Shown: piece by piece, positions 15,508 through 34,308 of the stretch
How positions within the stretch are numbered: the first letter of the stretch is position 1
Layout: each line of letters starts with the position of its first letter
Assembly: GCA_017451295.1 (NCBI GenBank)
Contig: JAFSPW010000057.1
Span: 8,227-72,226 of the forward strand
Direction of reading: 5' to 3'
Length of the DNA: 64,000 nucleotides
Source: Clostridia bacterium
Lineage (GTDB): Bacteria > Bacillota > Clostridia > Christensenellales > CAG-138
Translations under genes and position numbers: made by a program
Notes under the pieces: generated by a model
Database searches by the model: none
What the model was told of the DNA's origin: nothing
Seen by the model: the letters and a program-made list of their open reading frames with translations, nothing else

Positions 15508-15513
15508 AGCTAC

Positions 15514-15542
15514 AGTATAGGGCCAATCCCCGGCGCTGTCAA
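15514..15542 (-). promoter_or_regulatory. consensus sigmaA promoter placing the TSS on the trmO ATG (leaderless)
   Basis: On the minus strand: TTGACA (15537-15542), 17 nt spacer, TATACT (15514-15519), then 6 nt (GTAGCT), then ATG at 15507. There is no SD. Confidence 0.55.
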
Positions 15543-15568
15543 AAGAAAAAGGGACCGATTTCGGCCCC
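15541..15568 (-). terminator. intrinsic terminator of the ABC importer operon
   Basis: On the minus strand: GGGGCCGA-AA-TCGGTCCC followed by TTTTTCTTTT. Confidence 0.8.
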
Positions 15569-15580
15569 GATTCTCATTGT

Positions 15581-16378
15581 TTATCGGCTTAAGAGCACCT
15601 GGTCGCTTTCCACCTGCTCTCCGGCGGCGGCGGCGAACCGATCCAGCAGCTCCTGCTTGGTGATGCTCTGCTTCTCCTGCCCGCTGATGTCCAGCACGAT
15701 CTTCCCGGCGTTCATCATAATCAGCCTGTTGCCGTGGTTGATGGCATCCCGCATGTTGTGGGTGATCATCAGGGTGGTCAGATGCTCCTGCTGCACCAGC
15801 TGGTCCGAAAGGGTCAGCACCTTCTTGGCGGTGGCCGGGTCCAATGCGGCGGTGTGCTCGTCAAGGAGCAGCAGCCTCGGCCGCTGCAAGGTGGCCATAA
15901 TCAAGGTGATGGCCTGCCGTTGTCCGCCGGAGAATAGCCCCACCTTCTCCTGCAGCCGGTCCTCCAGCCCCAGGCCGAAGGACTTTAGCCTCTGGCGAAA
16001 CAGGTCCCTGTCCTCGTTGGTCACACCCCACTTGAGCCCCCGCTTCTTCCCCCGGCGCAGGGCCAGGGCCAGATTCTCCTCCAGCTGCATGTTGGGGGCG
16101 GTGCTCATCATGGGGTCCTGGAACACCCGGCCGATGTACTTGGCCCGCTTGTATTCCGGCAGGGCCGTGATGTCGATGCCGTCGAGAATAATTTTCCCGC
16201 TGTCCAGGGGCCAGGTGCCGGCGATGGCATTGAGGAGCGTGGATTTCCCTGCCCCATTGCTGCCGATAACGGTGACAAAGTCCCCATCATTTAGGTGCAG
16301 GCTAAGTCCCGACAAAGCGGTCTTCTCGTTCACGGTGCCCTTAGCGAAGGTCTTGCTGATGTTCTGAATGTCAAGCAC
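15581..16378 (-). CDS. ABC transporter ATP-binding protein
   Basis: Walker A GSNGAGKST, signature FSGGQRQAITL, Walker B LLLLDEHTAALD. Confidence 0.9.
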   Translation of the reverse strand: MLDIQNISKTFAKGTVNEKTALSGLSLHLNDGDFVTVIGSNGAGKSTLLNAIAGTWPLDSGKIILDGIDITALPEYKRAKYIGRVFQDPMMSTAPNMQLEENLALALRRGKKRGLKWGVTNEDRDLFRQRLKSFGLGLEDRLQEKVGLFSGGQRQAITLIMATLQRPRLLLLDEHTAALDPATAKKVLTLSDQLVQQEHLTTLMITHNMRDAINHGNRLIMMNAGKIVLDISGQEKQSITKQELLDRFAAAAGEQVESDQVLLSR

Positions 16379-17309
16379 GAGGGGACACCTCCTTCTTCCA
16401 CTTGGGCAGCTTTCCCTTCAGATACGGCATACCCAGGAACAGCGCCACGATGATGGCCGTGAGCATCTTCAAATCGTTGGAGTTGAGCCGAAGCCACAGC
16501 ACCACCACCACTACGAGGTAGTACACCACGCCCCCCAGCACCGTGAAGCTCAAGGTGCCGTAGAAGTTCAGCTTCTTGCCCATGATGCCCCGGGCCAGCC
16601 CCTCGCCGATGATGATGGCGGCCAGGCCGATGACGATGGCGCCCCGGCCCATGTTGATGTCCGCAAAGCCCTGATACTGGGCCATGAGCCCACCCGAAAG
16701 GGCCACGATGCCGTTGCTGATGGCCAGCCCCAGCACCTTGATGGCCTCGATGTGAATGCCCTGCGCCCGGCTCATGGTGGGGTTGTTGCCCGTAGCGCGA
16801 ATGGCAGAGCCCTGCTCCGTGCCAAAGTACCAATAGAAGAAACTGATGAGCACAATGGCGAAGATAGCGCCCCGCAGTATGGCCGTGGGCACAAAGCGGC
16901 TGGACAGCAGCAAAGAGAACTTATCCACGCTGACGGCCTTGTTGGCCGCCATGCCCATGATACGCAGGTTGATGGAGTAGAGGGAGAACTGCGTCAGAAT
17001 CCCCGAAAGGATGATGGGAATGCCCAGGGCCGTGTGCAGCAGCCCCGTCACGAGGCCGGAAAGCACCCCCGCCAAAGTGGCGACAATCAAAGCTAGATAG
17101 CTCGGCCAGCCATGCAGAATCAGCATCACGGCCACAGCCCCGCCTACGGTGAAGGAGCCGTCCACGGTCAAATCGGCGGCGTCTAAGAGTCGGAAGGTGA
17201 TATACACCCCCAGGGCCATGATGCCCCAAATCATGCCCTGGGCAACGCCGCCGGGCATGCTTTTGAAAAGCTTAATCAGGCTCAAAGGGGCCAGTAACAT
17301 AACAGGCAC
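16371..17309 (-). CDS. ABC transporter permease
   Basis: 312-aa polytopic protein that overlaps the ATPase gene by 8 nt. Confidence 0.85.
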   Translation of the reverse strand: MPVMLLAPLSLIKLFKSMPGGVAQGMIWGIMALGVYITFRLLDAADLTVDGSFTVGGAVAVMLILHGWPSYLALIVATLAGVLSGLVTGLLHTALGIPIILSGILTQFSLYSINLRIMGMAANKAVSVDKFSLLLSSRFVPTAILRGAIFAIVLISFFYWYFGTEQGSAIRATGNNPTMSRAQGIHIEAIKVLGLAISNGIVALSGGLMAQYQGFADINMGRGAIVIGLAAIIIGEGLARGIMGKKLNFYGTLSFTVLGGVVYYLVVVVVLWLRLNSNDLKMLTAIIVALFLGMPYLKGKLPKWKKEVSPRA

Positions 17310-22145: not shown

Positions 22146-22190
22146 ACGAATTTGGATAGCCAAATTCGTGATGTAAGGGTATGCCCTTAC
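22146..22190. terminator. two adjacent perfect hairpins between the convergent ABC exporter and the island operon
   Basis: ACGAATTTGG-atag-CCAAATTCGT (22146-22169) and GTAAGGG-tatg-CCCTTAC (22173-22190). Confidence 0.55.
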
Positions 22191-22202
22191 ACCCCGGCGA
22201 CA

Positions 22203-23795
22203 TTACAGGCTGAAATCCGCCGTGTTGTCGCGCTGATAGGAACACCAGTTGCCGTTTTCGATCAGTTCTTCGCGGGCAATCAATCGAAGCAGCGCATCGC
22301 ATTCGCCGAAACGGTCGATGCGATCGAGGACGGCGGCATAAAAGCGCTCCATTTTGACATGATCGGATGTTGTGCGCGAAAGCGACAGGCGTCCGTAATA
22401 GTTTGAGATAAACAGCGTTGCCGCCGAAATGCTGCCGAGCAGCAGCTTGGACAGCGTACGATAGAATTCGGCGTTTGCGATTTTCTGCGAAAACGGCAGC
22501 AAGCCGCCCCAAATGAGCTCGAAGAGCAACACCGCAAGATACAGCAGAATACTAACCCAAAGAGCAACGCGGACGATGCGTTCGCTCCCCTTGTGCGTGC
22601 GCTTTGACCAACCGACGGACCGTTCGTGATACCTGCGCTGTGCGTCGACCCATGCGTCACGGATGCGATTTGACCGATCCGGCGGAATGCCGACAGACAG
22701 AACTTTCAGCGCGGAGGCGACCCATCCGGTTTCCGTCTTGCCGGTCCACGGCAAAACATCGGCGGCGGAAATGCCGCTTCCGGCATAGCGTAAAAACGCC
22801 TGCACGCGCAGTCCCTCCGCCAGCATCCGATATTCGAGATAGCGCCGGTGCGAAGCAAAGCGGTTCCCGTACCGCTGCACAAGCCATGCAAGCAGCAGCA
22901 TTCCGCCGCAAACGAGAATCATTCCGTGCAATTCGGCTTCGTCATATAGAAGAAACGCAATCGTGATGACCGTGCTGATGATCGCAAGCGCGGCAAGAAT
23001 GCGGCGGTACTGTTTGGCAAAACGAACGCTCAAAGAATCCGCCTTTGCATACAGAGTTTCCATACGGTCGAGCTGCCTGTCCGGTTCCCGATCTGACGGC
23101 AAAAGCGCAGATTCGGATGCGGGCGCTTTCTTCGCCAGCCGGTTGAACTCGTCGGTCCGGGACAGCGTTTCGTCAAAAGCGGCACGGTCCCCGAGAAAAC
23201 GCACCGCTCCGGCGGCACTCGTTTCGTCACCTTTCCGCGGCGAAAGGATATGCAGCACGGGACAGCAGCCCCCGAGCGGAATCGAATCTTCCGGTGAATA
23301 ATCGCCGTCCAGAGCGCAATGCACGATCGCCGCCGTGCCGCAGTCTGAAGCGGGCGATTCCGCTCCGTCCCAAAGCGCGAGCAGCACATGGGCGTGCGAA
23401 GCAACATATACGCCCGCCTGCCGATACGCAAAGTCCCGATCCTTCGACGCGGGTGCGCGCTCCGTGTTGGGCGCAACAAAACAATCTTCCGCCGCGTCGC
23501 AAAGGGCCCGGAATGCGGGAAGCGCTTCCCCGGAAAAGTCCTTTTCATATTCCGTCCGATCCATCGGAAAAACGGCGATCAGCGACACACAAAGCGCCTG
23601 TGCGACCTCGGCGCAGAGGCGATCCGCACCGTCCGCAAGGCTGTTTTGCATCACGATTTTGGAATGCGGGCACCTGCTTTGCAGTGCCATGAGTTCCTGT
23701 TTGACTGCGTTGTATAAAACGTCGCGGTCCTCCGGACGGATGTCTCGATGTCCCGTTACGCCGACGACGATCGGGATCGTATCCTGCTCTGCCAT
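22203..23795 (-). CDS. SLOG-like (YpsA/LOG/DprA-type Rossmannoid) domain fused to four TM helices (2 x SLATT-like 2TM modules)
   Basis: 530 aa. The N-terminus has IVVGVTGHRD...SLADGADRLCAEVAQAL...AHVLLALWDG..SDCGTAAIV, matching the SLOG pattern G-TGhR / G-A-G-D / ..D.....G. TM helices: ILAALAIISTVITIAFLLY, GMILVCGGMLLLAWLV, IVRVALWVSILLYLAVLLFELIW, LLLGSISAATLFISNYY. SD AAGGAG. Domain calls are by eye. Confidence 0.6.
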   Translation of the reverse strand: MAEQDTIPIVVGVTGHRDIRPEDRDVLYNAVKQELMALQSRCPHSKIVMQNSLADGADRLCAEVAQALCVSLIAVFPMDRTEYEKDFSGEALPAFRALCDAAEDCFVAPNTERAPASKDRDFAYRQAGVYVASHAHVLLALWDGAESPASDCGTAAIVHCALDGDYSPEDSIPLGGCCPVLHILSPRKGDETSAAGAVRFLGDRAAFDETLSRTDEFNRLAKKAPASESALLPSDREPDRQLDRMETLYAKADSLSVRFAKQYRRILAALAIISTVITIAFLLYDEAELHGMILVCGGMLLLAWLVQRYGNRFASHRRYLEYRMLAEGLRVQAFLRYAGSGISAADVLPWTGKTETGWVASALKVLSVGIPPDRSNRIRDAWVDAQRRYHERSVGWSKRTHKGSERIVRVALWVSILLYLAVLLFELIWGGLLPFSQKIANAEFYRTLSKLLLGSISAATLFISNYYGRLSLSRTTSDHVKMERFYAAVLDRIDRFGECDALLRLIAREELIENGNWCSYQRDNTADFSL

Positions 23796-23808
23796 ACGCT
23801 CTCCTTTT

Positions 23809-25839
23809 TCAATCGAGTTTGTAAATCCGCAGACCGTCGAACTTACGGATCAGCTTCAGCATAGAATTGAATGGTTTCCAATCCTTGCCCTGATCCTTCT
23901 CGGACAGGTTGAGATAGTGCCGCGCAATCTCCAGTTCCCCAAAATCGCCGTTCATACACAGCTTGTGCTGCCGCATCTGCTCCCGCAGCGCATAGCGGTT
24001 CGGCTCGTCGTCTGTCGTTACGGTCTCATACAGGCTTCCTGCCGTCCAGCCCATCGCGCGGTGTGCGCGCACCCAGCGGGCATGCTCCATCGGCGCGAAC
24101 ACGGCGGTCTGCTCGGGGGTGAATGCACGCAGCATTTCAAAGTCCACGGGGCGATCCGTATAGAAGCAGCCGATCGCGTTCAGATATTTCGAGAAGCTTT
24201 TGACCTGATTGATGTTGCTGAGCTGATATTCGAGCGACATCGTGTCAAAGTCGCGTTCGAGCTGTTCCACGGAAATCTCCTGTTCCCGCCCCTCATACCG
24301 GTAGCGTCCGTTGATTGCCACGGCAAAGTCGTACATGTGTAAAAAGCTGCTGCCGGACAGATAGGTATGCTTGCTTTTGCGATCTGCGGTGCGCAAAAAA
24401 GTCGTGATAAACAGCGGATAGCCGCTTAGATCGACGATCTTTTCAATGTCCGTTCGGAAACGCTGCTCCTTTTCCGCCATATCGCTGTACGCTTTGAGAC
24501 GCGGCGGCGCATCCTGCCGGTCGCCCTGCTCCCATGCGCGGTAGCGCGCTTCATATTCTCCGATCTTTTCGGACTCCTCCGCGTCGAAGCAATAGAGCGC
24601 ATGGATCATGCCTCTGCCGAAATCGAACTCAGCGTCCATCGGATGCAGTTCAGTGCGTGAATTCCGACCGTAAGCGGTGCGATCCCAGCATTGCAGTTCG
24701 TCGCACAGCATCAAAAGGTATGCAAGCGGATGCAGCTCGGCTTTCAGCGGCGGCTTGCACTTGTCCCTGTCCTTATAAAACGCGATCGCGAATTTAAAGA
24801 GACTGTTGTGCAGCATGATCGCGGTCAATGCATCGATGTGCGCTGCGGTCAACGCCTCTTCGCCGAGCACTTCGCAAAGCTCCTGATACAGCCGTGTTGC
24901 GGAAAAGTATGCATGATCCATAAAGTACCCGAACCGGTTCGGCTCGGTCGGCTTGCGGCGGATCGTATCGAGCAGGTCATCCTCAAAAATGTCATATGCC
25001 GTACCGAGGCGCTTTGCAATGCCGTAGGCAAGCAAATCTTCGACGGACTCGAATGGACGGGAAAACAGCTTTGCAAAGTGCGCCTTTTGCGCGTCGCTCA
25101 TGCCGGACAGATAATCGAGATCGCGATACGCCAAAAACAAGCTGCCCTTGCCGCGCTTTTTGCGATCGACCTCAAAATAAGCCAACACCTGTTCAAACGG
25201 GATCTCAAACGGATAGCCGATATCATGAAACAGCGCGGTCAAGCCCCAATATTCGAGAAAGAATGCCGCAGCACGATGCTCGTCCCGTTCCGGCGTGAAC
25301 CCGTAGAACGCCTGAAATGTCTTTCGGAAATCCTCGTTTGTTTCAAAGATTGCAAGACCGAGCGCAAACACATAGACCGAGTGCGAATAATGATCGCGAT
25401 GCTTCATCAGCAGCGAGCTTGCGTTCGATTCAAACTCCGACAAGAGCTCGATCATCTTGCTCGACCGCCCGTAAGCGCCGAGGAACATCTTCAAAAAACA
25501 GTAATAAACGGTATAAGCATCCTCGGCAACGCCGGAGTCGATGAAGTTCTCCAGCTCACGCTCAAGGCAGAGTCGGTCGATGTCCATCTGCATATTGTAC
25601 GGGATCTGATTCGGATAAAAGCTTGTGCCGAGATACTGCCCGGTTTCGTCCTCCCGCTTCGCCGTCTCGGATGAAAAGCGCAGTCCCTCGCACCGCTCGT
25701 GCAAAAACCGCAGCGCGGCGGACTTCAGATCGCTGCCCGTTCTGCCCGCGCCGAACATCGCCGGTTCAAACGGACCGACATCCACGTTATAGCGTTCTTT
25801 GTTGATCCTTCGCATCTGTTCCAAAGCCGTGTATGCCAT
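23809..25839 (-). CDS. HD-superfamily phosphohydrolase with RyR-like C-terminal domain
   Basis: 676 aa with an H...HD...D set: HRDHYSHSVYVFALG, LTALFHDIGYPFE, LLMLCDELQCWDRTAY. The C-terminus FAPMEHARWVRAHRAMGWTAGSLYE resembles the RyR repeat (E-x-W...GW-x-G). SD GGAGG. Confidence 0.65.
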   Translation of the reverse strand: MAYTALEQMRRINKERYNVDVGPFEPAMFGAGRTGSDLKSAALRFLHERCEGLRFSSETAKREDETGQYLGTSFYPNQIPYNMQMDIDRLCLERELENFIDSGVAEDAYTVYYCFLKMFLGAYGRSSKMIELLSEFESNASSLLMKHRDHYSHSVYVFALGLAIFETNEDFRKTFQAFYGFTPERDEHRAAAFFLEYWGLTALFHDIGYPFEIPFEQVLAYFEVDRKKRGKGSLFLAYRDLDYLSGMSDAQKAHFAKLFSRPFESVEDLLAYGIAKRLGTAYDIFEDDLLDTIRRKPTEPNRFGYFMDHAYFSATRLYQELCEVLGEEALTAAHIDALTAIMLHNSLFKFAIAFYKDRDKCKPPLKAELHPLAYLLMLCDELQCWDRTAYGRNSRTELHPMDAEFDFGRGMIHALYCFDAEESEKIGEYEARYRAWEQGDRQDAPPRLKAYSDMAEKEQRFRTDIEKIVDLSGYPLFITTFLRTADRKSKHTYLSGSSFLHMYDFAVAINGRYRYEGREQEISVEQLERDFDTMSLEYQLSNINQVKSFSKYLNAIGCFYTDRPVDFEMLRAFTPEQTAVFAPMEHARWVRAHRAMGWTAGSLYETVTTDDEPNRYALREQMRQHKLCMNGDFGELEIARHYLNLSEKDQGKDWKPFNSMLKLIRKFDGLRIYKLD

Positions 25840-25851
25840 GGTGAGTCCTCC

Positions 25852-28800
25852 TTATTCGATTTCCAGTTCAAAGCCGTATTCGCCGCCCAAGGATCGGATC
25901 GCCTGCTGCATATTGTTCGATACGCACGCCGCGCGAAGATGCCGCAGCGTCAGAAGCGGCGAGATGTCGGTAAGCTCCGACGTCCACGACACCTTGATGT
26001 ACTCGAGTTCGGGGTGCTGCTCGATGAAGGTCTTAAATGTTTCGTTGGTGAAGCGGCAGTTGCCCGCATGGAGTTCGTGGATTTTCGCTTGCTTTACGGC
26101 GTCCATCCAAAGCGCGCAGTCCGTGTTGAACACATTGAGACTCTGATACTCCGGCACGGCGGACAGCACCGCATACTGCTCGTCCGGGATCTTCCCCTGC
26201 AAATTATCTATGCTGAGAACAAAATATGGCACATTGCCGTCCTCGTCCGGCGTCATACAGAACGTATAGTCGATTTTGGCGATTGCGCTGATGTCCGAAA
26301 GATTGTTGCGGCTGATATTGAGATCGGTCAGATGCAAAAGCTTCTCAACGCCCTCGATCGAAGTGACCGTTTCCGTGTCCGCCACGTTGATGATCTCGAG
26401 CGACTTTAGATCAAACAGCGGCGACAGATCGGAAAGATTTGCCCAGTTGGCTTGGAACCGGCGCAGCTTTGCGGCCGTCTCGATCCCGCCGAGTGATTCG
26501 ACCGGCTGACCGTACAGATATAGCGATTCGAGGTTTGGAAGACGGGTCAAAAATCCAAAGTCGGTGATCTGCCCCTCCCCGATCGGGAAGCGCTCGCCGG
26601 TTGCGTTGTCGTGAATATACAAGTCCGGTTTGTCGCCGCCGTCCCAGTCCTCTTCGAGCCACAGGTCGCCCCACGGATCTTTCATCACATAGTTTCCGAA
26701 GAATCCGATCTCGCGCACGCGTGAGAGCACGTCATCCGGCAGGGCAACAAATTCGTCAACCGTCATCAGCGGGAAGTCGAAGGAGAGATTGCACTCTGCG
26801 GGGATCGCGCCGAGCGGCGCAAGATCGTCCAGCTTGAGTCCGTTCAGATCTGCCCATTGCAGCTTCTGCAGGTTTTGGATGCCTTGTATGCTTGTCACGC
26901 CGGTATATTGCAGCTTCAGTTCTTCTAGGTCCTGCAGCGTAAACACCGGGGATGCATCCATCAGGGTCGGTGTGAATGTAAGTTCGAGTTTCTTCAACTT
27001 CTGCAGATTCTGAATCCCCTCGATCGACGTCAGCGACTGATCGATCAGGTTCAGATGTTCGAGCCCGGTCAGCTTGGACAGCTTGGAAAAATCGGTCATT
27101 GTACCGGGGTGCTCGATTGCGATATCATGGCTGGGGTCACCGTCGTTCGACCGCAGCACAAAGGTCGGTTTGTCGCCGTCCCATTGCTGATCGAGCCAAT
27201 ACTCCTCCCAGGAGAAGATCACATCGCCGACTGCATGCAGATCCCTGACGCGGCTCAACACCGCGCTTGGCAGCGTGTCGAGCTCGTCAAAGGACAACAG
27301 CTCCACGTGCGGCTCGGCCGACTCCCACCATCCGTCCGGATACTCCACCTCGAAGTTGTCCAAAAGCTTGCTTTCCACAAGCAGCTCAGCCTGCGTCTGC
27401 AGATGAGCCGGCACCTTGAGATAGCGCCCTTTGTGCGCATAAAGCGGGGAAAGATCGGTCACGCCGTCCAGGTCGAACAGTTCGATGTAATAATTCTCCT
27501 TTTGAAAGGACGCGAGCGCCGACAGGTCCGTCAGATCAAAGATGCTTTCGAGCCGCAGCCGATCCGCGTGCAGCGCCGAAAAATCGGGCAGGGTAAACAG
27601 CTGTACCAGCTCCAGATTGTCAAAGGTTTTTTGCTCGATCGCCGACCAGTCGACCAGGCGCGAGCAGTTCTGCACGCGAAGCGTCGAAAGCTCGGGCAGA
27701 TGCTCGAGGCCGTTTAGGGAAGTGAGCAGCGGACAGTCATCCAGTGTCAACTCCTGGATATCCAGCGCGCGCAGCGTTTCGAGCGAGCGCACGCAGTGCA
27801 GCGTCAGACTGCGGCCGACCTCGGGCAGCTGCATCAAATCCACTTCGCCGTCATTGAGATTGGTCAAACCGTCGCGGTTCCAATATTCAAACTCTGCGAC
27901 CGGCGTGTTGTGAATGTAAGGCAGCGCGCTGCCGTTGCGATCCGTGATGTTCAGATAGCTGTATCGCGGCAGGGCGGCAAGTCCAGACCAGTCATCCACC
28001 TCGGAAATGCCGAAGGAAAAGGTGTTTTTGTTGACAATCTCCGACAGGAAATCGACGTCGTGCAGACCCGACCCGTAGATGGCAAGATCGTGGAGGCGCG
28101 GCAGCTTTACGATGGGAGAGATGTCCGCAAGATTAAAGACGCTGTTTAGGTGAACCTGCAAAATTCCCGTGCAGCTTTCGAGCGCGGAGATGTCGGAAAG
28201 ATGATCAAGCCCCTCGATATGCACGCGCCGCAGACTTGTATGATTCTCCAGACCTTTGAGGGAACGTACGCCGCGCGTATACCAAAGCTCGATTTCCTCA
28301 AGATTCTTTGCGTTACTGAGCCATGAAAGATCGTTCAGCGCTTCGTTGTGCAGATCGACATAATGCAGGCTCGTGTTGTCCGAAAGCGCGGACATGTCAG
28401 ATAGGTCTTCGCTTTGATAACCCACAAACAGGCGTTCAAGATGCAGCTTGTTTTCCAGTCCGTGCAACGATGTGAGTTGCGGCAGAGAGAACTCGACTGT
28501 TTCGAGTGCGGAAGATTCTGAGAGGAAACTGAGATCACGGTTTGCGCTGCCCTCGATCGTGAAATACTTCAGTTTCGAGCATTGCTTTAGACCGTCGAGA
28601 TTGAGGGCGGTATCGCTCCAATCGCCCCATAGATGGAGGGACGTGAGTGCGGGCGGCGCAAACGATGATAAGTCCTGCGGCATCGGCGATAGAAATTCCA
28701 AATGCACGTCGTTCAGGCGTCCGCAGCCGTTGAGCGGTGAAAAATCGGCGATGGTGTTGCCGCGGTATTGAAAGCAGCTCATCTGCGATCCAGTAACGCC

Positions 28801-29679
28801 CGAAAGATCGGTGATGCTGCAATCAAACAGTTCCAAAACGCCGAGATTCAAAAGTCCCGACAGATCGGGAAGCTCGCCAATGACTCGCACAAGCGTGATG
28901 AATTTTACGTTCTTCATGTACCGCAAAAAGTCGAGATCGTTCCACGCAGAAAGTTCGATCTCGTGTCCGTCCTCATTGCTGTACCAGCGCGCGATCCCGT
29001 CTTCTTTGGTGCGGTTTGCAAAGTACTCCGCGCCGATGCGCGCCCAGCCATTTTGCTCCGCAATCCCCTCATCACCGGTGAAGTAGTGCAGCGTATCGCC
29101 GACGATGATCAGCTCATAGACCTTATTTAGATCCTCGGCGGTAAGCCCCGCTTCGGAGGGAATGACCGGTTCCGCCGTCGGCGCGGGTGTGCTCTTTTGC
29201 AGCATCGTTTCCTTTGCGGGAAGCAGTTTTGTTGCAAGGAAGATACCTCCGGCGATCACGAGCGCGGCGGCAGCGGCCGCAAGGATGATCGGCAAAGGCT
29301 TTTTTGTTGCTTCAAACGGCTTTGCGGTTGCGATACGCTGTGCAAGCTCTTCTACGGAGTACCGTTCGGCGAAGATCGTGTTGCGGGAATACAGCGCGTT
29401 TTTCAGCAGCTCCGGCGGCGTTGAGCCGTCGAGGTTTATCGGCACCGTCTCCACGCCCTTGGCGTCATTGGCGAAGAACGTTTCCATAAGTGTGATGGCC
29501 TCGTTCAGCCGTTCGGACGTGAACAGCAGCATGACGCCGCTTTTGGTCGGCATTTCGCTTTCGTCTGCGATCTCAAATCCCTTTGCCCGCAGCGCATCGA
29601 GGATCGGTGCGACGCGTTCTTTGTCGGCTTCGGCAAACAGCGGGGACAACTTCTTTTTTCGGTATGCGACTTTTGTCAT
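25852..29679 (-). CDS. giant type-II membrane protein: diverged TIR-like N-domain, 1 TM, ~1100-aa internalin-type LRR ectodomain
   Basis: 1275 aa with no signal peptide. The TM helix LPIILAAAAAALVIAGGIFLATKLL lies around aa 127-150. Dozens of LxxLxxLxLxxxxIxDLSxL repeats follow (e.g. LEEIELWYTRGVRSLKGLENHTSLRRVHIEGLDHLSDISALESC). The N-domain aligns loosely with the TIRs of the two upstream paralogues. SD AAGGAGAC. Confidence 0.65.
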   Translation of the reverse strand: MTKVAYRKKKLSPLFAEADKERVAPILDALRAKGFEIADESEMPTKSGVMLLFTSERLNEAITLMETFFANDAKGVETVPINLDGSTPPELLKNALYSRNTIFAERYSVEELAQRIATAKPFEATKKPLPIILAAAAAALVIAGGIFLATKLLPAKETMLQKSTPAPTAEPVIPSEAGLTAEDLNKVYELIIVGDTLHYFTGDEGIAEQNGWARIGAEYFANRTKEDGIARWYSNEDGHEIELSAWNDLDFLRYMKNVKFITLVRVIGELPDLSGLLNLGVLELFDCSITDLSGVTGSQMSCFQYRGNTIADFSPLNGCGRLNDVHLEFLSPMPQDLSSFAPPALTSLHLWGDWSDTALNLDGLKQCSKLKYFTIEGSANRDLSFLSESSALETVEFSLPQLTSLHGLENKLHLERLFVGYQSEDLSDMSALSDNTSLHYVDLHNEALNDLSWLSNAKNLEEIELWYTRGVRSLKGLENHTSLRRVHIEGLDHLSDISALESCTGILQVHLNSVFNLADISPIVKLPRLHDLAIYGSGLHDVDFLSEIVNKNTFSFGISEVDDWSGLAALPRYSYLNITDRNGSALPYIHNTPVAEFEYWNRDGLTNLNDGEVDLMQLPEVGRSLTLHCVRSLETLRALDIQELTLDDCPLLTSLNGLEHLPELSTLRVQNCSRLVDWSAIEQKTFDNLELVQLFTLPDFSALHADRLRLESIFDLTDLSALASFQKENYYIELFDLDGVTDLSPLYAHKGRYLKVPAHLQTQAELLVESKLLDNFEVEYPDGWWESAEPHVELLSFDELDTLPSAVLSRVRDLHAVGDVIFSWEEYWLDQQWDGDKPTFVLRSNDGDPSHDIAIEHPGTMTDFSKLSKLTGLEHLNLIDQSLTSIEGIQNLQKLKKLELTFTPTLMDASPVFTLQDLEELKLQYTGVTSIQGIQNLQKLQWADLNGLKLDDLAPLGAIPAECNLSFDFPLMTVDEFVALPDDVLSRVREIGFFGNYVMKDPWGDLWLEEDWDGGDKPDLYIHDNATGERFPIGEGQITDFGFLTRLPNLESLYLYGQPVESLGGIETAAKLRRFQANWANLSDLSPLFDLKSLEIINVADTETVTSIEGVEKLLHLTDLNISRNNLSDISAIAKIDYTFCMTPDEDGNVPYFVLSIDNLQGKIPDEQYAVLSAVPEYQSLNVFNTDCALWMDAVKQAKIHELHAGNCRFTNETFKTFIEQHPELEYIKVSWTSELTDISPLLTLRHLRAACVSNNMQQAIRSLGGEYGFELEIE

Positions 29680-29714
29680 GACGGTCTCCTTGTCCTGTGC
29701 TAAGGGGAAATGGG

Positions 29715-30890
29715 TTACGGGACTAAAATGACATCGAACGCCGCATCGTCCGGGAAGATCAGCGGCAGCATATCGATACTCACAGTCACGGTCTCAAGCG
29801 ATGGCTGTGCGTTCAGCACGGAAAGGTCGCGCACATTGCTGTGCTCCAGGTGAAGTGTTTTAAGGCTCGGCAGCGTAGGCAGCGTCGAAAGGTTCACGCT
29901 TAAACAACCCGCAAGGCTCAATTCGTTCAAAAGCACGAGCCGATCCAGTGCAGCAAGCGATTGTACCGGCTGCATCAAAAGGGAAAGAGTTTTGAGATAC
30001 GGCATTCGTCCGATCACGGAAAGATCCTCGACAGAACCCATCAGCGGCTTTGCGCCGTTTACGGTGTATGCGCCGGCTGTGTATTCGATTGCCGACAGAT
30101 CGTTCAGCACCATCGTGCCGCAAAAATGCAGTTCCGTCACGCCGCCGAGGTCGGACAGCTTTATATCGCCATCAGAAATACCCAGCGCATTGCGAACCGC
30201 TGCTTCCTGCTTTGCATCGGGGAATGTGACCGTATCCATGCCGGGAACATACGGTGTCGCCGTCGGCTCCGGCGTTTCGGTCGGCACAGGCGTGGCGGTC
30301 GGCGTCAGTCGTGCCGTAGGTACGGGTGTCGGGTTTGGCAGCAGATAGGCGTCCAATCGACCGGTCATAAGCGCATACAGACCTGCCGCTGCAGCGGCAA
30401 ACAGCAGAATCGCGAGCACAAGCATCAACCAATCAAAACGCAGTTTTTCAAACGGCTTGCGATAATATGCGCGCGTGATCTGTTTGCAGGAAAGAATGGT
30501 TTCGGCACGCGCAGATGCATCGGAACCGGACGAAAGCCTTGTGCATTGTGAAAGCAGATCGTTCCATTCTGCGTTCGGCGCCGTATCCGAAAGCGGCAGC
30601 AGCAGAACCGGCTTCTTCAGAACAAGCGCTGCTTCGATCTCGCTTCGGCAGTTGGGTGAAGCAAAAGCTGTTTTTGAAACAAAGAACAACACCATAGAGC
30701 AGCTTTGCATATGCTCTTCGATGTTCTTCGGCCAATCGCTGCCCGCCGGAATGCCCTCGTCGTACCACAGTCGCAGTTTGCGGTTGTGCAGCAGTGTAAT
30801 GACTTTGAGAACCGCCTCGGAATCGCGGTGCGAATAACTGATGAAAAGGTAGGGACGGCGACCCTCATATGGCTTAAAGTAGACGCTCAT
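29715..30890 (-). CDS. TIR domain - TM - Pro/Thr linker - LRR protein
   Basis: 391 aa. TIR signature PYLFISYSHRDSEAVLKVITLLHNRKLRLWYDEGIPAGSDW ... VLFFVSKTAFASPNCRSEIEAAL (C-x-x-E catalytic-Glu context). TM helix WLMLVLAILLFAAAAAGLYALM. Linker PNPTPVPTARLTPTATPVPTETPEPTATP. C-terminal LRRs. The start overlaps the stop of the upstream gene (ATGA). Confidence 0.75.
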   Translation of the reverse strand: MSVYFKPYEGRRPYLFISYSHRDSEAVLKVITLLHNRKLRLWYDEGIPAGSDWPKNIEEHMQSCSMVLFFVSKTAFASPNCRSEIEAALVLKKPVLLLPLSDTAPNAEWNDLLSQCTRLSSGSDASARAETILSCKQITRAYYRKPFEKLRFDWLMLVLAILLFAAAAAGLYALMTGRLDAYLLPNPTPVPTARLTPTATPVPTETPEPTATPYVPGMDTVTFPDAKQEAAVRNALGISDGDIKLSDLGGVTELHFCGTMVLNDLSAIEYTAGAYTVNGAKPLMGSVEDLSVIGRMPYLKTLSLLMQPVQSLAALDRLVLLNELSLAGCLSVNLSTLPTLPSLKTLHLEHSNVRDLSVLNAQPSLETVTVSIDMLPLIFPDDAAFDVILVP

Positions 30891-31696
30891 GATCCGCCTC
30901 CCGTCAGCACGATATCATACCGTTTAAGAAGCGGAGCGGCATCGACCGCGTTCGCCTGATTCAGTTCAATTCGGGAAAGATTGGAAAGCAGGGCAAACTC
31001 ATCCGTGCGTTCGGGTAAAGCGTCAAAACGAAGGGTCGTAACCGTTACAATCGATTCTTCGGTGATCGGTTCGCCGCTGAGCGCGTCGCGTACCGCTGCA
31101 GTCAGAACGGGATCGGAAAAGAAGACGGTATCAGCAGTTTTTTCAATCGATGGCGCACGAAGATGTCGCACAAGAACCGCTGCGCCGATCAGCAGAAACG
31201 CCGCGGCGACAATTGCGGCTGCAATCGCAAGAACAGCCTTTTTGCGAACGGGCAGCGGCGGACCGATCAACTCCTGCGAAAATCCGTCTGCATGGAGCAA
31301 TGCTGCTTCCGCCGCATCGACGCTGCGCGGCTTGATGTGCACTGCGCGCGAATCCAACCCCATGGACAGCGTGCTTTTTGCAGTATCTACGTCTACGCTG
31401 ATGATCGGGATGCTTTTCTCCTGACAAACGAGAACTGCGCTCTTTACCGCCTGATCCGTACGCGCACGCTTGGTTTGATACAGAACCACAAGCCGTGCCT
31501 TGCGCATACGCGCATCGCGCCGTTCGCGCTCTGCTACGGTGCCGCTGTGCCCCGTGGGGTACCAGATGCGGCAGCCGCGTTCGTACAGCCGTCGAAACAG
31601 CGGCCGCAACCGATCCCTATCCGCATCTGAAAAGCAAAAATACAGATACGGCTGATCGCCGCCGTACGGCGGAAAAAGCTCCGAAAACCTCGCCAT
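30887..31696 (-). CDS. TIR-like domain - TM - short LRR-like tail protein
   Basis: Start trimmed to ATG 31696 (MARFSELFPPYGGDQPYLYFCFSDADRDRLRPLFRRLYERGCRIWY) after GGGGAGG; the longer ORF would run through the promoter. TM helix AVLAIAAAIVAAAFLLIGAAVLV. The catalytic-Glu position appears to be substituted (..RTDQAVKSAVL). Confidence 0.6.
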   Translation of the reverse strand: MARFSELFPPYGGDQPYLYFCFSDADRDRLRPLFRRLYERGCRIWYPTGHSGTVAERERRDARMRKARLVVLYQTKRARTDQAVKSAVLVCQEKSIPIISVDVDTAKSTLSMGLDSRAVHIKPRSVDAAEAALLHADGFSQELIGPPLPVRKKAVLAIAAAIVAAAFLLIGAAVLVRHLRAPSIEKTADTVFFSDPVLTAAVRDALSGEPITEESIVTVTTLRFDALPERTDEFALLSNLSRIELNQANAVDAAPLLKRYDIVLTGGGS

Positions 31697-31730
31697 TCGT
31701 AACCTCCCCGCGCGCTCCGCTTTTGCTTCT

Positions 31731-31774
31731 ATACTACCAAGATATATCGTATATGCAAATGCTGTTTCTGTCAA
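31731..31774 (-). promoter_or_regulatory. candidate promoter(s) of the TIR-LRR/HD/SLOG operon
   Basis: Two overlapping options on the minus strand. First: TTGACA (31769-31774), 17 nt, TACGAT (31746-31751). Second: TTGCAT (31753-31758), 16 nt, TGG-TAGTAT (31731-31736). Confidence 0.45.
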
Positions 31775-31896
31775 TCCCAAACGTAAAAAGCGCCGGAAGG
31801 GTTACCGTTTCAAGTCAGACGCCATGCGTATCCATTTGCTTTTGTACCGATGGTTGTGCGCTCCTTCATTCCCTAAGGGCAATTCTTAATCGGTGC

Positions 31897-31921
31897 AAAG
31901 AAAAAGGCGCATTGCTGCGCC
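31897..31921 (-). terminator. second intrinsic terminator downstream of rplT
   Basis: On the minus strand: GGCGCA-gcaa-TGCGCC followed by TTTTTCTTT. Confidence 0.6.
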
Positions 31922-31949
31922 TTCGAGCCTCTTGTCTGATATTCAAAAC

Positions 31950-31980
31950 ATGCGGAGAAAACACTCTGCTTTCTCCGCAT
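31950..31980 (-). terminator. intrinsic terminator of the infC-rpmI-rplT operon
   Basis: Perfect 11-bp stem ATGCGGAGAAA-9 nt-TTTCTCCGCAT. On the minus strand it is followed by GTTTTGAAT. Confidence 0.7.
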
Positions 31981-32072
31981 ATCCTTAGCTCTTACTGCAA
32001 AACCCGATATGGATTATTTGCTTTCGTATCGGCCTCCCCCTTTAAGGGAAGCTCCTTTGCAGCTGTACTTGC

Positions 32073-33289: not shown

Positions 33290-33760
33290 TTAAGCATGAA
33301 CATTATAGCGGCGGTTTTGCCCGCTGTCAAGGGCTTTTGCCGCTTTTTCCCCATATTTTTGCCCCAAACGGTCCGCCCAGTTCTCCGGGTATCGGTCATA
33401 GTACCCAATGCCTCGCCGCCGGCGATAGCGCACCAGGGCGGGCAGGTTGGCCCAGAGGAAGGAGGGGAGCCCCACAAGAGGAAGGTACAAAGGCCCGAGC
33501 AGCAACGACTGCCTGCTGTGCCCGTATTCATGCATCAGCAGCCGGGTTTCTTTCTCCTTATCTAGCCCCTCGGGCACGAAGAGGAACATCCCCAGGGAGA
33601 CGCCGCCCCATTTGCCGTCATGGAAGACGGCCAGGGCGCCGCCCATCCATCGCCGCCGACACCGGCGGTACAGAACCAGCAGCCCCAGCCCCAGAAGGCT
33701 CTGCACCAGGCCCCAGCTCCATTGGAGGAGGATATATGCCGCTTTCTGACTTTTTTTCAT
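33290..33760 (-). CDS. hypothetical membrane protein with HExxH motif
   Basis: 156 aa with hydrophobic N-terminal helices and HEYGH (a possible zinc-metallopeptidase motif). Confidence 0.55.
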   Translation of the reverse strand: MKKSQKAAYILLQWSWGLVQSLLGLGLLVLYRRCRRRWMGGALAVFHDGKWGGVSLGMFLFVPEGLDKEKETRLLMHEYGHSRQSLLLGPLYLPLVGLPSFLWANLPALVRYRRRRGIGYYDRYPENWADRLGQKYGEKAAKALDSGQNRRYNVHA

Positions 33761-33828: not shown

Positions 33829-34308
33829 ATGCCCATGGAAAAGAAAAACAACTTTTGGCCCTATGCCATCTGCATCCTGTTGTCCCTGCTGGTAGGGGGT
33901 GTGGCCACCCTGGTGTCCATGGACGGTATGCGCGCCTTCCAAAACCTGCAGCAAGCGCCCCTGACCCCGCCGCCGGTGGTGTTCTCCATCGTCTGGTCCA
34001 TCCTGTATATCCTTCTGGGGGTCTCGGCGGCCATGGTGTACATCGCCCCGCCCCGGGGGATAAAGGAGCAGCATCTGCTCTTTGGGGCGGCGCTGGTGCT
34101 GAACTTCCTTTGGACGGTGCTCTTCTTTGCCCTGGGGCTGCGACTCGCTGCGTTTGTGGTGCTGCTAGTCATGCTGGCGGTGGCTGTGGGCACCGTGGTG
34201 CGCTATGGCCCCCTCTCCAGAACCGCCGCCCTGCTGCAGATACCCTATGCCCTGTGGCTCCTGTTCGCCGGGTATCTGAATCTAATGGTCTTCCTCCTGA
34301 ACGGCTAA
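33829..34308 (+). CDS. tspO: TspO/MBR family tryptophan-rich sensory protein
   Basis: 159 aa, five TM helices. Family-typical LTPPPVVFSIVWSILYILLGVSA ... IPYALWLLFAGYLN. Confidence 0.85.
   Translation: MPMEKKNNFWPYAICILLSLLVGGVATLVSMDGMRAFQNLQQAPLTPPPVVFSIVWSILYILLGVSAAMVYIAPPRGIKEQHLLFGAALVLNFLWTVLFFALGLRLAAFVVLLVMLAVAVGTVVRYGPLSRTAALLQIPYALWLLFAGYLNLMVFLLNG

Follow-up and report, generated by a model that had tools for sequence, protein, structure and literature searches.

Among the described bacterial TIR systems, Thoeris comes closest to the locus reported here. Type I Thoeris is composed of the TIR protein ThsB and the SIR2-SLOG protein ThsA, type III of several TIR proteins and a SLOG effector, and type VII of a TIR protein and the SLATT effector ThsH, with cADPR as the signal. 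SLOG and SLATT domains (Pfam DUF4231, SLATT_1-6 and YAcAr) reportedly characterize families of nucleotide-sensing effectors, an account that goes back to Burroughs et al. in 2015. The TIR-made signal of type I Thoeris, 3'cADPR, is bound by the effector through its SLOG domain, and a SLATT effector of type VII was reported to respond to cADPR (bioRxiv 10.64898/2025.12.03.692087). LRRs are not mentioned anywhere in this Thoeris survey preprint.

The window, a stretch of 64,000 nucleotides from a Clostridia bacterium, was found to carry a five-gene cassette on the minus strand (22184..32038), which comprises its own upstream region and genes A to E and is conserved as one block. Gene A (30887..31696, 269 aa) encodes a pseudo-TIR, a membrane helix and a short LRR-like ectodomain, gene B (29715..30890, 391 aa) a canonical TIR, a membrane helix, a Pro/Thr linker and an LRR ectodomain, and gene C (25852..29679, 1275 aa) a degenerate TIR, a membrane helix and an internalin-type LRR ectodomain. 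Gene D (23809..25839, 676 aa) encodes a cytosolic protein with a divergent HD-type phosphohydrolase region and a C-terminal RyR domain, and gene E (22203..23795, 530 aa) a protein with an N-terminal SLOG domain and a membrane part of the DUF4231/SLATT-clan type; all five genes are on the minus strand. An earlier note on this DNA had described A, B and C as a tandem trio, and their coordinates and arrangement were confirmed, but it had overlooked the downstream genes D and E, which likely supply the output of the A-B-C system.

The successive gaps from A to E are -4, 35, 12 and 13 nt, and each gene has a ribosome-binding site. The ATGA overlap between A and B, on which the earlier note had already remarked, is present, and the A stop and B start overlap in almost all of the 80 related loci. 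Gene A starts with the ATG at 31696, preceded by the ribosome-binding site GGGGAGG, in agreement with the orthologue N-termini MARxxELFPPY. A promoter-like site upstream of gene A (31746..31774, minus strand; TTGACA, 17 nt, TACGAT), which is a consensus match only (10/12), lies downstream of a hairpin (31903-31924) that resembles a terminator of rplT. A TTG at 31780 is unlikely to be the real start of gene A, since it overlaps the promoter-like -35 box. The single promoter-like site and the short gaps (12-35 nt) suggest that the cassette of the window is expressed as one transcript.

We read this cassette, with somewhat better than an even chance of being right, as a Thoeris-like surface-sensing TIR signalling system with membrane-spanning sensors. 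C would be the variable sensor, whose internalin-type LRR ectodomain would bind an external ligand and whose stripped-down TIR would be non-catalytic. B, with its canonical TIR, its invariant Glu84 and its small conserved LRR ectodomain, would be the only enzyme of the three, and A would be its non-catalytic TIR partner, whose synthesis the gene overlap probably couples to that of B. Binding of the ligand outside would bring the membrane helices and the cytosolic TIR domains together, after which active B-TIR assemblies would form and use NAD+ to make a signal derived from ADP-ribose, probably one of the cyclic ADPR isomers. E would bind this signal through its cytosolic SLOG domain, and its four-helix SLATT-like part would alter membrane permeability, leading to growth arrest or death. 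D, a putative metal-dependent HD phosphohydrolase with an RyR domain of the adenine-nucleotide-binding type, may either destroy the signal, as a threshold or reset, or act as a second effector; a link between this RyR domain and cADPR-type nucleotides is speculation based on the operon. If this reading is true, the cassette would represent a bacterial TIR alarm system wired to cell-surface sensing, and it could serve in phage defence or in some other conflict.

As in Thoeris, one operon encodes both a TIR protein predicted to be catalytic and an effector that unites a SLOG sensor with a SLATT-clan membrane domain. The system has more than a single TIR gene, a feature reported for type III, and by the expected logic an ADPR derivative made by a TIR would switch on an effector that arrests the cell. 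In contrast to Thoeris, the TIR proteins of the cassette are membrane-spanning and have predicted extracellular LRRs, two of the three TIRs appear non-catalytic, E joins SLOG and SLATT-like parts in one protein, and the HD-RyR protein D is added. The Thoeris models themselves also differ from the cassette: the PADLOC ThsB models match B weakly (~3e-5), no ThsA model matches D or E, and NCBIfam ThcB4 of type III reaches 19 bits, compared with a cutoff of 220. A, C, D and E were not recognised by the PADLOC models of known defence systems, which counts against the preferred reading, and no description of such an architecture was found in the literature searched.

In E, the SLOG domain spans approximately aa 1-200 and the membrane part is built of two hairpins of two helices each (aa 266-307 and 410-469), whereas the described SLATT families have one. 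The family matches YAcAr-type SLOG and DUF4231, which were detected in 12/16 and 14/16 E orthologues, respectively, but the copy of the window lies below both Pfam cutoffs (DUF4231, 21.9 bits with a cutoff of 24.7; YAcAr, 16.5 bits with a cutoff of 28.2), which counts against the preferred reading. The motifs GVTGHR, LAxGAD and ALWDG...CGT are invariant. Like the described SLOG/SLATT families, relatives of E pair with STAND-WD40, TIR and other conflict genes. Distant relatives of the SLOG domain adjoin TIR genes in unrelated bacteria and phyla, in the order SLOG-DUF4231, TIR and WD40 on a Caballeronia plasmid, and in the order TIR, caspase and small SLOG-like ORF on B. subtilis pBS72. The E family is also paired with STAND-WD40 and dynamin-like GTPase genes, both of which are typical of conflict systems. 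Unlike the described families, E relatives are recurrently coupled to RyR-domain proteins, including far outside the A-B-C-D-E cassette; no description of this coupling was found in the literature searched, Burroughs et al. 2015 being outside that search.

With regard to D, the HD-type region (approximately aa 140-390) contains the family-invariant residues H150, H153, H205-D206, D308-H309, H344-N345 and D380. The Pfam HD match of the window copy, at 14.9 bits, is below the cutoff of 22 and counts against the preferred reading as well. The family profile of D matches solved RyR repeat domains (E 2.4e-10), and Pfam RyR was detected in 7 of the 18 family members, with a best value of 6e-16. The match to the RyR repeat domains, which are known from ryanodine receptors and from bacterial 'putative ryanodine receptor' domains (e.g. 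PDB 3NRT, 6UAG), covers the C-terminal ~120 aa (domain at approximately aa 560-676) and includes the motif EHxRW...GW..G...Y..L....K..D. In contrast to these, D has the domain only once, joined to an HD-like hydrolase within a soluble bacterial protein. Of all genes of the cassette, D is the most strongly conserved (dN/dS 0.07).

The A-B-C trio was found in all 80 fetched loci, in unrelated genomic contexts. From this strict co-occurrence and the A-B overlap, and from these two features only, we infer that A, B and C may form a hetero-oligomer, as the earlier note had proposed. D and E were both present in 21 of the 30 loci that extend 4.5 kb or more in both directions, in several gene orders. 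When the window was compared with the related locus L005 (blastn), the alignment was confined to 32038..22184 and the flanks were unrelated; the exceptions inside this block were two unaligned stretches within gene C and one extra ORF in L005. An alternative that we consider possible but unlikely is that the locus comprises two or three neighbouring but independent systems. The A-B-C trio would then stand by itself as a membrane TIR module that acts through NAD+ depletion by B itself or through something else, and D-E, an RyR-domain protein and a SLOG membrane protein, would be a separate two-gene system that often lands next to it. In 7 of the 30 well-flanked loci, neither D nor E was seen near A-B-C; this counts against the preferred reading and implies that signalling to E is not obligatory or that the partners are located elsewhere in the genome. 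The position of D relative to A-B-C also differs between loci. D and E are moreover found together or with different partners where no TIR gene was seen nearby, so that D-E could be a separate system that only adjoins A-B-C, which likewise counts against the preferred reading. In locus L090, the gene immediately upstream of an E relative (30% identical to E) is a D relative, within which the contig ends; in L092, the coupling is between an E relative and an AAA-RyR protein, with no TIR gene up to 6 kb away; a STAND-WD40 protein is another such partner of E; and a D relative is found alone on a mobile element. Nevertheless, the joint presence of the five genes in 21 loci, the gaps and promoter-like site that suggest one transcript, and the sharing of the block with L005 as a unit argue against independence. 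So do the recurrence of TIR-SLOG neighbourhoods in unrelated phyla and the binding of TIR-made signals by SLOG domains, which is an established Thoeris mechanism.

A second alternative, to which we give the same low probability, retains the pathway of the preferred reading but assigns it a role in physiological surface sensing, in which TIR-made nucleotides would gate E as a channel without killing. The cues could be plant fibre, host or mucus components, neighbouring cells or the cell-wall state. The cassette is common within one ecological group, with B relatives in 206 species-level genomes that are nearly all from rumen or gut Clostridia. No B relative was found on phage contigs or plasmids, and housekeeping genes flank the cassette in the window (rplT on one side, an ABC transporter on the other) with no recognisable defence island, both of which count against the preferred reading. 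The rplT, infC or ABC-transporter flanks are common to no related locus. In some loci, the cassette is joined by a gene for a Ser/Thr kinase-TM-LRR protein, a classical layout for signal transduction, and the very strong purifying selection on D also fits a physiological role. On the other hand, even near-identical cassettes occupy differing genomic positions, the E family pairs with STAND-WD40 and dynamin-like GTPase genes, and SLATT-type effectors have been described as cell-killing.

The sensor gene also argues against a physiological role, since it is multiplied, mosaic and hypervariable. Gene C is present in 1-3 tandem copies per locus (80 loci) and diverges fastest in the cassette. Two patches of its ectodomain (28435..28810, approximately aa 290-415, and 27487..27913, approximately aa 590-730; both minus strand) could not be aligned at the DNA level even to L005, whose A, B, D and E genes share 92-96% identity with those of the window, and their protein identity was 30-50% in four of four comparisons. 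The first patch has a pS of 0.84, compared with 0.04-0.13 in the TIR domains of A and B, and aa 600-780, corresponding to the second patch, have a pS of 0.54, a pN of 0.40 and a dN/dS of 0.58. This much older synonymous divergence indicates segment exchange. The dN/dS of the patches is below 1 where computable, which counts against the preferred reading.

The TIR domain of B (aa 1-150) matches Pfam TIR_2 (5.6e-18) and ThsB_TIR (7e-5), and 368 homologues were found, which among the matches listed are all approximately 390 aa long. The B family alignment comprises 22 sequences. The predicted catalytic glutamate is Glu84 (codon 30639..30641, minus strand), within the motif S78-P-N80-C81-R-S83-E84 (SPNCRSEI, residues 78-85). 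Glu84, S78, N80, C81 and W42-Y-D-E-G46 are invariant in 80/80 orthologues, and the motif S.NC.SE is present in 116/120 database homologues. The pseudo-TIR of A (aa 1-150, nt 31247-31696) reaches 17 bits with Pfam TIR_2, below the 28-bit cutoff, and TIR_2 is matched by 18/32 A orthologues. The A family aligns with the B family (hhalign, 98.6% probability, E 1e-15), and the AlphaFold2 model of A (pLDDT 86) has the SPARTA TIR, AbTir, SARM1, RPS4 and ThsB as top Foldseek matches. The degenerate TIR of C (aa 1-128, nt 29296-29679) has no Pfam TIR match in the window copy, and TIR_2 was detected at E<=0.1 in 17/30 orthologues. The C family aligns with A at 96.9% and with B at 86% (hhalign), with a 13-residue deletion at the BB-loop region, and the model of its N-domain (AlphaFold2, pLDDT 71) matches BtpA, AbTir and PdTIR best in Foldseek, with TM-scores of 0.5-0.56. 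Computation supports the view that all three N-domains are TIR-related rather than of another fold, in line with the earlier note.

Judged by these alignments, B is the only canonical TIR of the three, and A and C are without the catalytic glutamate. No glutamate was found at the B-Glu84 column in the A family (0/78 orthologues), and no conserved glutamate was found in the TIR of C. The claim that A lacks this residue is thus upheld, but the lysine proposed in its place is not: in the profile-profile alignment, B Glu84 corresponds to A Ala87, A K85 to B R82 and A S86 to B S83, so that the former register was two residues out. K85, D81 and Q92 are conserved in the A family. It is very improbable that the TIRs are scaffolds only, as in the classical adaptor view of animal Toll-like receptors, with the glutamate of B serving structure or binding. 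The conservation of two clearly non-catalytic TIRs does indicate that TIR-TIR contacts matter here, but the complete catalytic signature of B is invariant, the trio is linked to a nucleotide-sensing SLOG effector and a phosphohydrolase, and, according to a 2026 preprint, even the TIR of human TLR4 yields cADPR in a bacterial host.

As the earlier note had observed, A, B and C have no signal peptide and one hydrophobic helix each (A, 158-176 or, more broadly drawn, 155-179, nt 31160-31234; B, 155-173, nt 30372-30428; C, 131-149, nt 29233-29289). No N-terminal hydrophobic segment was found in any orthologue examined, and a single helix was counted in 77/77 orthologues of A, 75/79 of B and 81/83 of C. 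Across the families, the mean number of K+R residues in the N-flank and C-flank is 4.49 vs 1.01 in B, 3.73 vs 1.43 in C and 1.74 vs 1.31 in A; the positive-inside bias is 77:2 in B and 73:4 in C. Pro/Thr-rich linkers directly follow the membrane helix. Together with the internalin-type LRRs, these features lead to a predicted N-in/C-out orientation of A, B and C, with the TIR inside and the LRRs outside, which agrees with the topology first proposed. That the topology is instead reversed or that the proteins do not span the membrane, with cytoplasmic LRRs and a helix that is only an anchor or dimerisation element, is the least probable alternative of all: the flanking charges are balanced in the window copies of A and C (3 vs 3) and cytoplasmic bacterial LRR proteins exist, but the charge bias of the B and C families is strong, a folded N-domain of 130-150 aa without signal peptide is expected to stay inside, a TIR enzyme requires cytosolic NAD+, and linkers and LRRs of these types typically belong to the exported portions of surface proteins in Gram-positive bacteria.

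The ectodomains comprise approximately 93 aa in A, 218 aa in B, of which ~45 aa are a Pro/Thr linker, and 1126 aa in C, close to the first estimates of about 80, 180 and 1100 aa. The LRR richness attributed to all three holds for C and, more weakly, for B. In C, Pfam LRR_4 matches at 4.8e-24 and the NCBIfam internalin-A type at 2e-32; LRRs of the internalin type are the kind found in Gram-positive surface proteins. In B, the linker (aa 174-222) is followed by a conserved LRR ectodomain (aa 223-391), in which LRR matches are weaker in the window copy and LRR_4 is found in many orthologues. It does not hold for A, whose ectodomain (aa 180-269) is a ~90-aa stub that has no Pfam LRR match and is modelled by AlphaFold2 as three strand-helix units.

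Like animal Toll-like receptors, A, B and C combine LRRs, one helix and a TIR, with predicted LRRs outside and TIR inside, and there are several receptor kinds with differing ectodomains. The 2026 preprint also reports that the TLR4 TIR is able to set off a SLATT-type Thoeris effector of bacteria. In contrast to these receptors, the order is reversed (TIR-TM-LRR), a signal-anchor takes the place of the cleaved signal peptide in insertion, the LRRs belong to the internalin type of bacteria, and there is no adaptor-kinase cascade. The likeness does not imply that the whole architecture has one common origin; more likely, it was put together independently from shared domains. Compared with plant TIR-NB-LRR proteins, the cassette has no NB-ARC or STAND NTPase module, and its proteins are membrane-spanning with a predicted extracellular sensor rather than cytosolic. 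In both, the TIR precedes the LRRs and the LRRs are variable. As in the plant RPS4/RRS1 helper/sensor pairs, a presumed catalytic TIR stands beside non-catalytic TIR partners, and the TIR domains of RPS4 and RRS1 were among the Foldseek fold matches.

This study revealed that genes A, B and C, which encode predicted TIR-fold membrane proteins, form part of a five-gene cassette on the minus strand of the window. The genes lie head to tail as A (30887-31696, 269 aa), B (29715-30890, 391 aa), C (25852-29679, 1275 aa), D (23809-25839, 676 aa) and E (22203-23795, 530 aa), where D is a putative HD-like phosphohydrolase with a RyR domain and E probably combines a SLOG domain with a DUF4231/SLATT-like membrane part. 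The earlier note had described A, B and C, but missed D and E of the same run. The ATGA overlap at the A/B junction, from which it had proposed translational coupling, is present in the window. The remaining spacings are short (35 nt between B and C, 12 nt between C and D, 13 nt between D and E), and a purine-rich ribosome-binding site precedes every one of the five starts. Upstream of A, the end of rplT (32073) is followed by a terminator-like hairpin (31903-31924) and then by a promoter-like site, TTGACA-17-TACGAT (31746-31774); a TTG at 31780 was considered as the start of gene A and rejected. The gene downstream of E encodes an ABC transporter and is convergent, with its end at 22120. The G+C content of the cassette is 0.54-0.56, compared with mostly 0.57-0.61 in the wider surroundings. 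Further upstream, just past infC, are a 156-aa ORF without a family match (33290-33760, minus strand) and a TspO/MBR family membrane protein (33829-34308, plus strand; Pfam 3.6e-33).

We conclude from sequence and modelling that A, B and C are probably paralogous TIR-TM-LRR proteins, with the greatest certainty for B, followed by A and then C. As judged from its sequence, B is without doubt a TIR domain protein: it matches Pfam TIR_2 (PF13676) with 66 bits (E 5.6e-18), well over the gathering cutoff of 28 bits, and ThsB_TIR at 7e-5. Given that the window copies of A and C fall under the Pfam cutoff, these two were tested by family scans, profile-profile comparison and fold. The window copy of A scores 17 bits against TIR_2, under the 28-bit cutoff, and 18 of 32 A orthologues match this family (best 7.7e-7). 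The A and B families align in hhalign with 98.6% probability (E 1e-15) over 104 columns ungapped. Full-length A, modelled with AlphaFold2 from 46 sequences (pLDDT 86), shows a five-fold beta-alpha N-domain, whose best solved matches in Foldseek are the TIR domains of SPARTA, AbTir, SARM1, RPS4 and ThsB, and also the related DNPH1 fold.

With regard to C, the window copy has no Pfam TIR match, and 17 of 30 orthologues match TIR_2 at E<=0.1 (best 1.9e-4). In hhalign, the C family matches the A family with 96.9% probability (E 1.4e-10) and the B family with 86% (E 4.7e-6), the latter alignment containing a 13-residue gap opposite the GIPAGSDWPKNIE segment of B, which corresponds to the BB-loop and alpha-B region. 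The AlphaFold2 model of C residues 1-150 reaches only moderate confidence (pLDDT 71), because the homologue search with this N-domain returned four proteins and thus a 5-sequence alignment. Nevertheless, TIR domains make up nearly all of the first twenty Foldseek matches of this model (TM-scores 0.5-0.56), among them BtpA, AbTir, PdTIR, SNC1, a B. cereus TIR and Cat1. TIR-related N-domains, as had been proposed for all three proteins, are thus found by Pfam in B and are indicated by family scans, hhalign and AlphaFold2/Foldseek in A and, less firmly, in C.

The three N-domains differ at the column of the predicted catalytic glutamate. All 80 of 80 B orthologues keep this residue, Glu84 of the alpha-C region, together with S78, N80, C81 and the W42-Y-D-E-G46 stretch, and the S.NC.SE motif occurs in 116 of the 120 B database homologues listed. 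The corresponding column of A holds Ala87, and A, S, R, N or D across the family, with Glu in 0 of 78 sequences. The aligned column varies in C, where 57 of 88 sequences have D or E one column earlier and the family lacks the BB-loop region. The earlier claim that the catalytic-Glu context is confined to B therefore stands; the Lys that it placed at the Glu position of A resulted from an alignment two residues out of register. Near this column, A conserves K85 (78 of 78), D81 and Q92, so that A appears to be constrained for some other function. By sequence, the Glu columns thus point to one enzyme-competent TIR, that of B, and two putatively non-catalytic ones, those of A and C.

A, B and C all lack a hydrophobic segment at the N-terminus, in agreement with the proposed lack of a signal peptide, and each has exactly one strongly hydrophobic helix, also as described before. 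The basic residues said to flank this helix on its N-side are clear only for B among the window copies (5 versus 1), and the positive-inside count was therefore extended to orthologues from 80 related loci, where an N-side excess is seen in all families. A single helix was found in 77 of 77 A, 75 of 79 B and 81 of 83 C sequences. The mean K+R count is 1.74 on the N-flank and 1.31 on the C-flank in A (N>C in 37 sequences, N<C in 16), 4.49 and 1.01 in B (77 and 2), and 3.73 and 1.43 in C (73 and 4). In B and C, a linker rich in Pro, Thr, Ala and Glu directly follows the helix. The C-terminal parts of B and C are rich in LRRs as described, but that of A is not, since it comprises only about 90 residues after the helix, modelled by AlphaFold2 as three short strand-helix units. 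In C, the repeats belong to the internalin class (NCBIfam internalin A, 2e-32), a type of LRR known from Gram-positive surface proteins. Self-BLAST revealed no internal repeats in C; the LRR calls in this protein are Pfam and NCBIfam LRR matches. In Toll-like receptors, the order is signal peptide, LRR, helix and TIR, whereas A, B and C show the order TIR, helix and LRR without a signal peptide. The reversed order noted previously is thus what was found, and its LRR-out/TIR-in logic agrees with the predicted orientation. The likeness to animal TLRs is one of parts and predicted orientation, not of membership.

The ectodomain of C is the most variable part of the cassette. Between the window and the closest related cassette (locus L005), protein identity is 96% for A, 94% for B, 95% for D and 92% for E, but only 75% for C, in which two stretches, around residues 300-400 and 600-750, drop to 30-50% identity. 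The same two stretches were the most variable in three further comparisons. Their pS values of 0.84 and 0.54, against 0.04-0.13 in the neighbouring TIR domains, amount to a far higher synonymous divergence, which argues for old alleles introduced by recombination rather than recent point mutation. Positive selection is not shown in these patches of C, because dN/dS is below 1 wherever it can be computed (0.5-0.6, maximum 0.58) and is otherwise uncomputable through saturation. In contrast, the strongest constraint in the cassette was observed for D, with a dN/dS of 0.07.

Single-sequence searches of solved structures with D and E gave no matches, and family profiles were needed for both. D exhibits an invariant pattern of metal-binding type, comprising H150, H153, H205-D206, D308-H309, H344-N345 and D380, which would fit an HD phosphohydrolase (H...HD...D). 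The match to Pfam HD (PF01966) is 14.9 bits (cutoff 22 bits), and neither the single sequence nor the family profile matched a solved HD protein. The C-terminal RyR domain was recognized with the family profile, which matches solved ryanodine-receptor repeat domains at E 2.4e-10. Pfam RyR (PF02026) is matched by 7 of 18 D family members, the best match (6e-16) being to a shorter D type present at some loci; the window copy alone has no Pfam RyR match.

E appears to begin with a SLOG domain carrying the invariant motifs GVTGHR, LAxGAD and ALWDG..CGT. Its window copy scores 16.5 bits against YAcAr (PF10686; cutoff 28.2), a family matched by 12 of 16 orthologues (best 6.8e-6), and 21.9 bits against DUF4231 (PF14015, SLATT clan; cutoff 24.7), matched by 14 of 16 orthologues (best 9e-7), while one orthologue matches SLATT_3. 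The membrane part consists of two 2-helix hairpins (266-307 and 410-469); a basic loop of about 100 residues (K+R = 20) is predicted to lie in the cytosol, as is the SLOG domain. Against solved structures, the family profile gave only a chance-level match, to KtrA. The E family is large: a limit of E<=1e-30 yields 552 representative clusters, and one of E<=1e-3 yields 5395.

We identified 368 database homologues of B, the 120 listed being nearly all 360-410 aa long with Pfam TIR_2, often together with LRR_4. A scan of one genome per species found B relatives in 206 genomes, from which 80 loci were kept. Almost all of these are rumen or gut MAGs, labelled Clostridia, Oscillospiraceae, Ruminococcaceae, Lachnospiraceae, Limivicinus, Saccharofermentans or Christensenellales. 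A lies directly upstream of B in 80 of 80 loci, usually overlapping it, and at least one C follows B, with two or three tandem C genes at several loci. In the 30 loci flanked by 4.5 kb or more on either side, the order A-B-C-D-E was observed in 14, D-A-B-C-E in 6, D-A-B-E-C in 1, D-A-B-C in 2 and A-B-C only in 7. The flanking genes differ at each locus compared. DNA similarity between the window and L005 is confined to window positions 32038-22184, with no shared sequence outside, and these sharp ends indicate that the cassette is a discrete block that was moved or transferred. No terminal repeats were found at its ends, and no integrase, transposase or recombinase gene adjoins it in the window or in L005. 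Carriage of A-B-C by prophages or plasmids was rejected, as no B relative was found in IMG/VR or PLSDB. The shared block also includes an inverted repeat of 14 nt with a 3-nt loop (ATGCGGAGAAAACA/TGCTTTCTCCGCAT) at window positions 31950-31980, between rplT and the terminator-like hairpin.

By analogy with Thoeris, these domains could form a pathway in which the ectodomain of C binds an external ligand, leading to clustering of the membrane helices and of the cytosolic TIR domains of C, B and A. The TIR of B would thereby be switched on to produce an ADPR-derived messenger, which would be bound by the SLOG domain of E, whose membrane part would then alter permeability. D would either break down the messenger or act as a second effector, under the control of its RyR domain. 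The analysis shows the domain identities, the gene linkage and the topology as predicted; the pathway built on them is what we infer, and a surface-sensing TIR pathway as such seems to us slightly favoured. That its role is phage defence is a more tentative suggestion: early detection of phages outside the cell is one option, and sensing of competitors, of envelope damage or of the habitat are others. The most far-reaching reading, that of a prokaryotic TLR counterpart, is possible but rather doubtful. Here, a repertoire of recombining LRR ectodomains would detect a threat at the cell's exterior (for instance phage particles, weapons of competitors or damage to the envelope), and the signal would pass across the membrane through a hetero-oligomer of one catalytic and two non-catalytic TIRs to a NAD-derived messenger read by E and D.

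A link between TIR and SLOG proteins is suggested by the window, where TIR gene B and the SLOG-membrane gene E share one apparent operon, and is supported independently in unrelated bacteria, namely on Caballeronia plasmids and on B. subtilis pBS72, where distant relatives of the E-SLOG domain adjoin TIR genes. Alternatively, D and E may be a module of their own into which A-B-C plugs, or an independent neighbour. One contig (L090:2-3171) carries a D relative (41.5% identical) directly upstream of a distant E relative (about 30%) and ends inside D. At another locus (L092:3626-7695), a 791-aa protein combines a P-loop NTPase region with an RyR domain at its C-terminus. Its stop overlaps the start of an E relative (about 30%), a NUDIX gene lies close by, and TIR genes are absent within 6 kb. 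The pair of an RyR protein and E therefore exists apart from the TIR-LRR trio, which suggests, on sequence grounds, that this pair is conserved. A further distant E relative has STAND-WD40 proteins and dynamin-like GTPases as partners, and a full-length D relative (62% identical) lies on a mobile element in an IMG/VR contig (L085:8001-10046) without A, B or C. The latter element also encodes a large serine recombinase, a relaxase-like protein and a ParM-like protein, and a different, repeat-rich ORF follows its D relative.

The proposed surface-sensing pathway follows the same logic as Thoeris, but the input design of the cassette differs. In a recent preprint, type VII Thoeris is described as a TIR protein making cADPR with a SLATT membrane protein as effector, and type III as several TIR proteins with a SLOG effector (bioRxiv 10.64898/2025.12.03.692087). 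Curated Thoeris models match the cassette poorly: PADLOC ThsB models match B only at 3e-5 to 5e-3, ThsA models match neither D nor E, and the NCBIfam ThcB4 model gives 19 bits against a cutoff of 220. The Thoeris papers covered, whose systems were tested by phage infection, do not describe a membrane-spanning TIR sensor in their passages on LRRs, membranes or TIRs. A bacterial TIR-TM-LRR receptor, or this cassette, was not found in the literature searched, in which subscription papers are thinly covered, so that an earlier description is possible. On a Caballeronia plasmid (NZ_CP049320.1, locus L087, 6040-12606), genes for a SLOG-DUF4231 protein, a TIR protein and a WD40-repeat protein lie in that order; this trio looks like a cytosolic analogue of the window system, with WD40 replacing the LRRs. 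On pBS72 (L088, 4629-6483), a small E-SLOG-like ORF comes after a TIR gene and a caspase-family gene, an arrangement that recalls TIR-caspase (type IV) Thoeris plus one additional SLOG-like protein.

To our knowledge, how Thoeris TIR proteins recognize infection is mostly unknown, and membrane-bound TIR sensors with large, variable and surface-exposed LRRs would give bacterial immunity or signalling another type of input. The cassette would also be a simple and tractable model of how binding of a ligand outside switches on a TIR enzyme inside, a central question of animal TLR biology. As a 2026 preprint reports TIR domains of animal TLRs to be enzymes themselves, with that of human TLR4 making cADPR in bacteria and triggering type VII Thoeris, this question becomes sharper and a bacterial LRR-membrane-TIR system with SLOG/SLATT proteins more pertinent. 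Moreover, the family would offer natural cases of a catalytic TIR paired with pseudo-TIR domains, and of an RyR domain linked to a TIR operon. Being common among Clostridia of the rumen and gut, it may affect phage-host or cell-cell dynamics there. If the cassette were indeed a TLR counterpart, it would be the first bacterial TIR immune pathway with an extracellular input and would make the RyR domain a candidate for an ancient sensor of ADPR-type nucleotides.

Several loci carry additional genes. In L005, an extra ORF of about 470-500 aa (14979-16478), absent from the window and without a Pfam or NCBIfam match, lies between C and D. Between the same two genes, two 'Lachnospiraceae' loci (L058:8765-11514 and L061) have three genes which, by eye, we take to be a glycerophosphodiester phosphodiesterase, a GH25-type lysozyme and a Sir2-family NAD-dependent deacetylase; these may be unrelated insertions. 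Upstream of D, a gene of about 572 aa was found at four loci (L033:4715-6433, L039:4550-6268, L069:4717-6435 and L043:5280-6998), with further copies in L067, L071 and L027. In its product, C-terminal LRRs come after a Ser/Thr protein kinase domain (Pfam Pkinase 8e-27), so that a kinase takes the place of the TIR on an LRR protein at these same loci. Finally, a 498-aa protein encoded directly upstream of A in a Limivicinus locus (L082:5000-6496) combines a TIR_2 match (5e-23), a hydrophobic stretch and LRRs, and is by its sequence a putative fourth member of this architecture, with a canonical, non-degenerate TIR.
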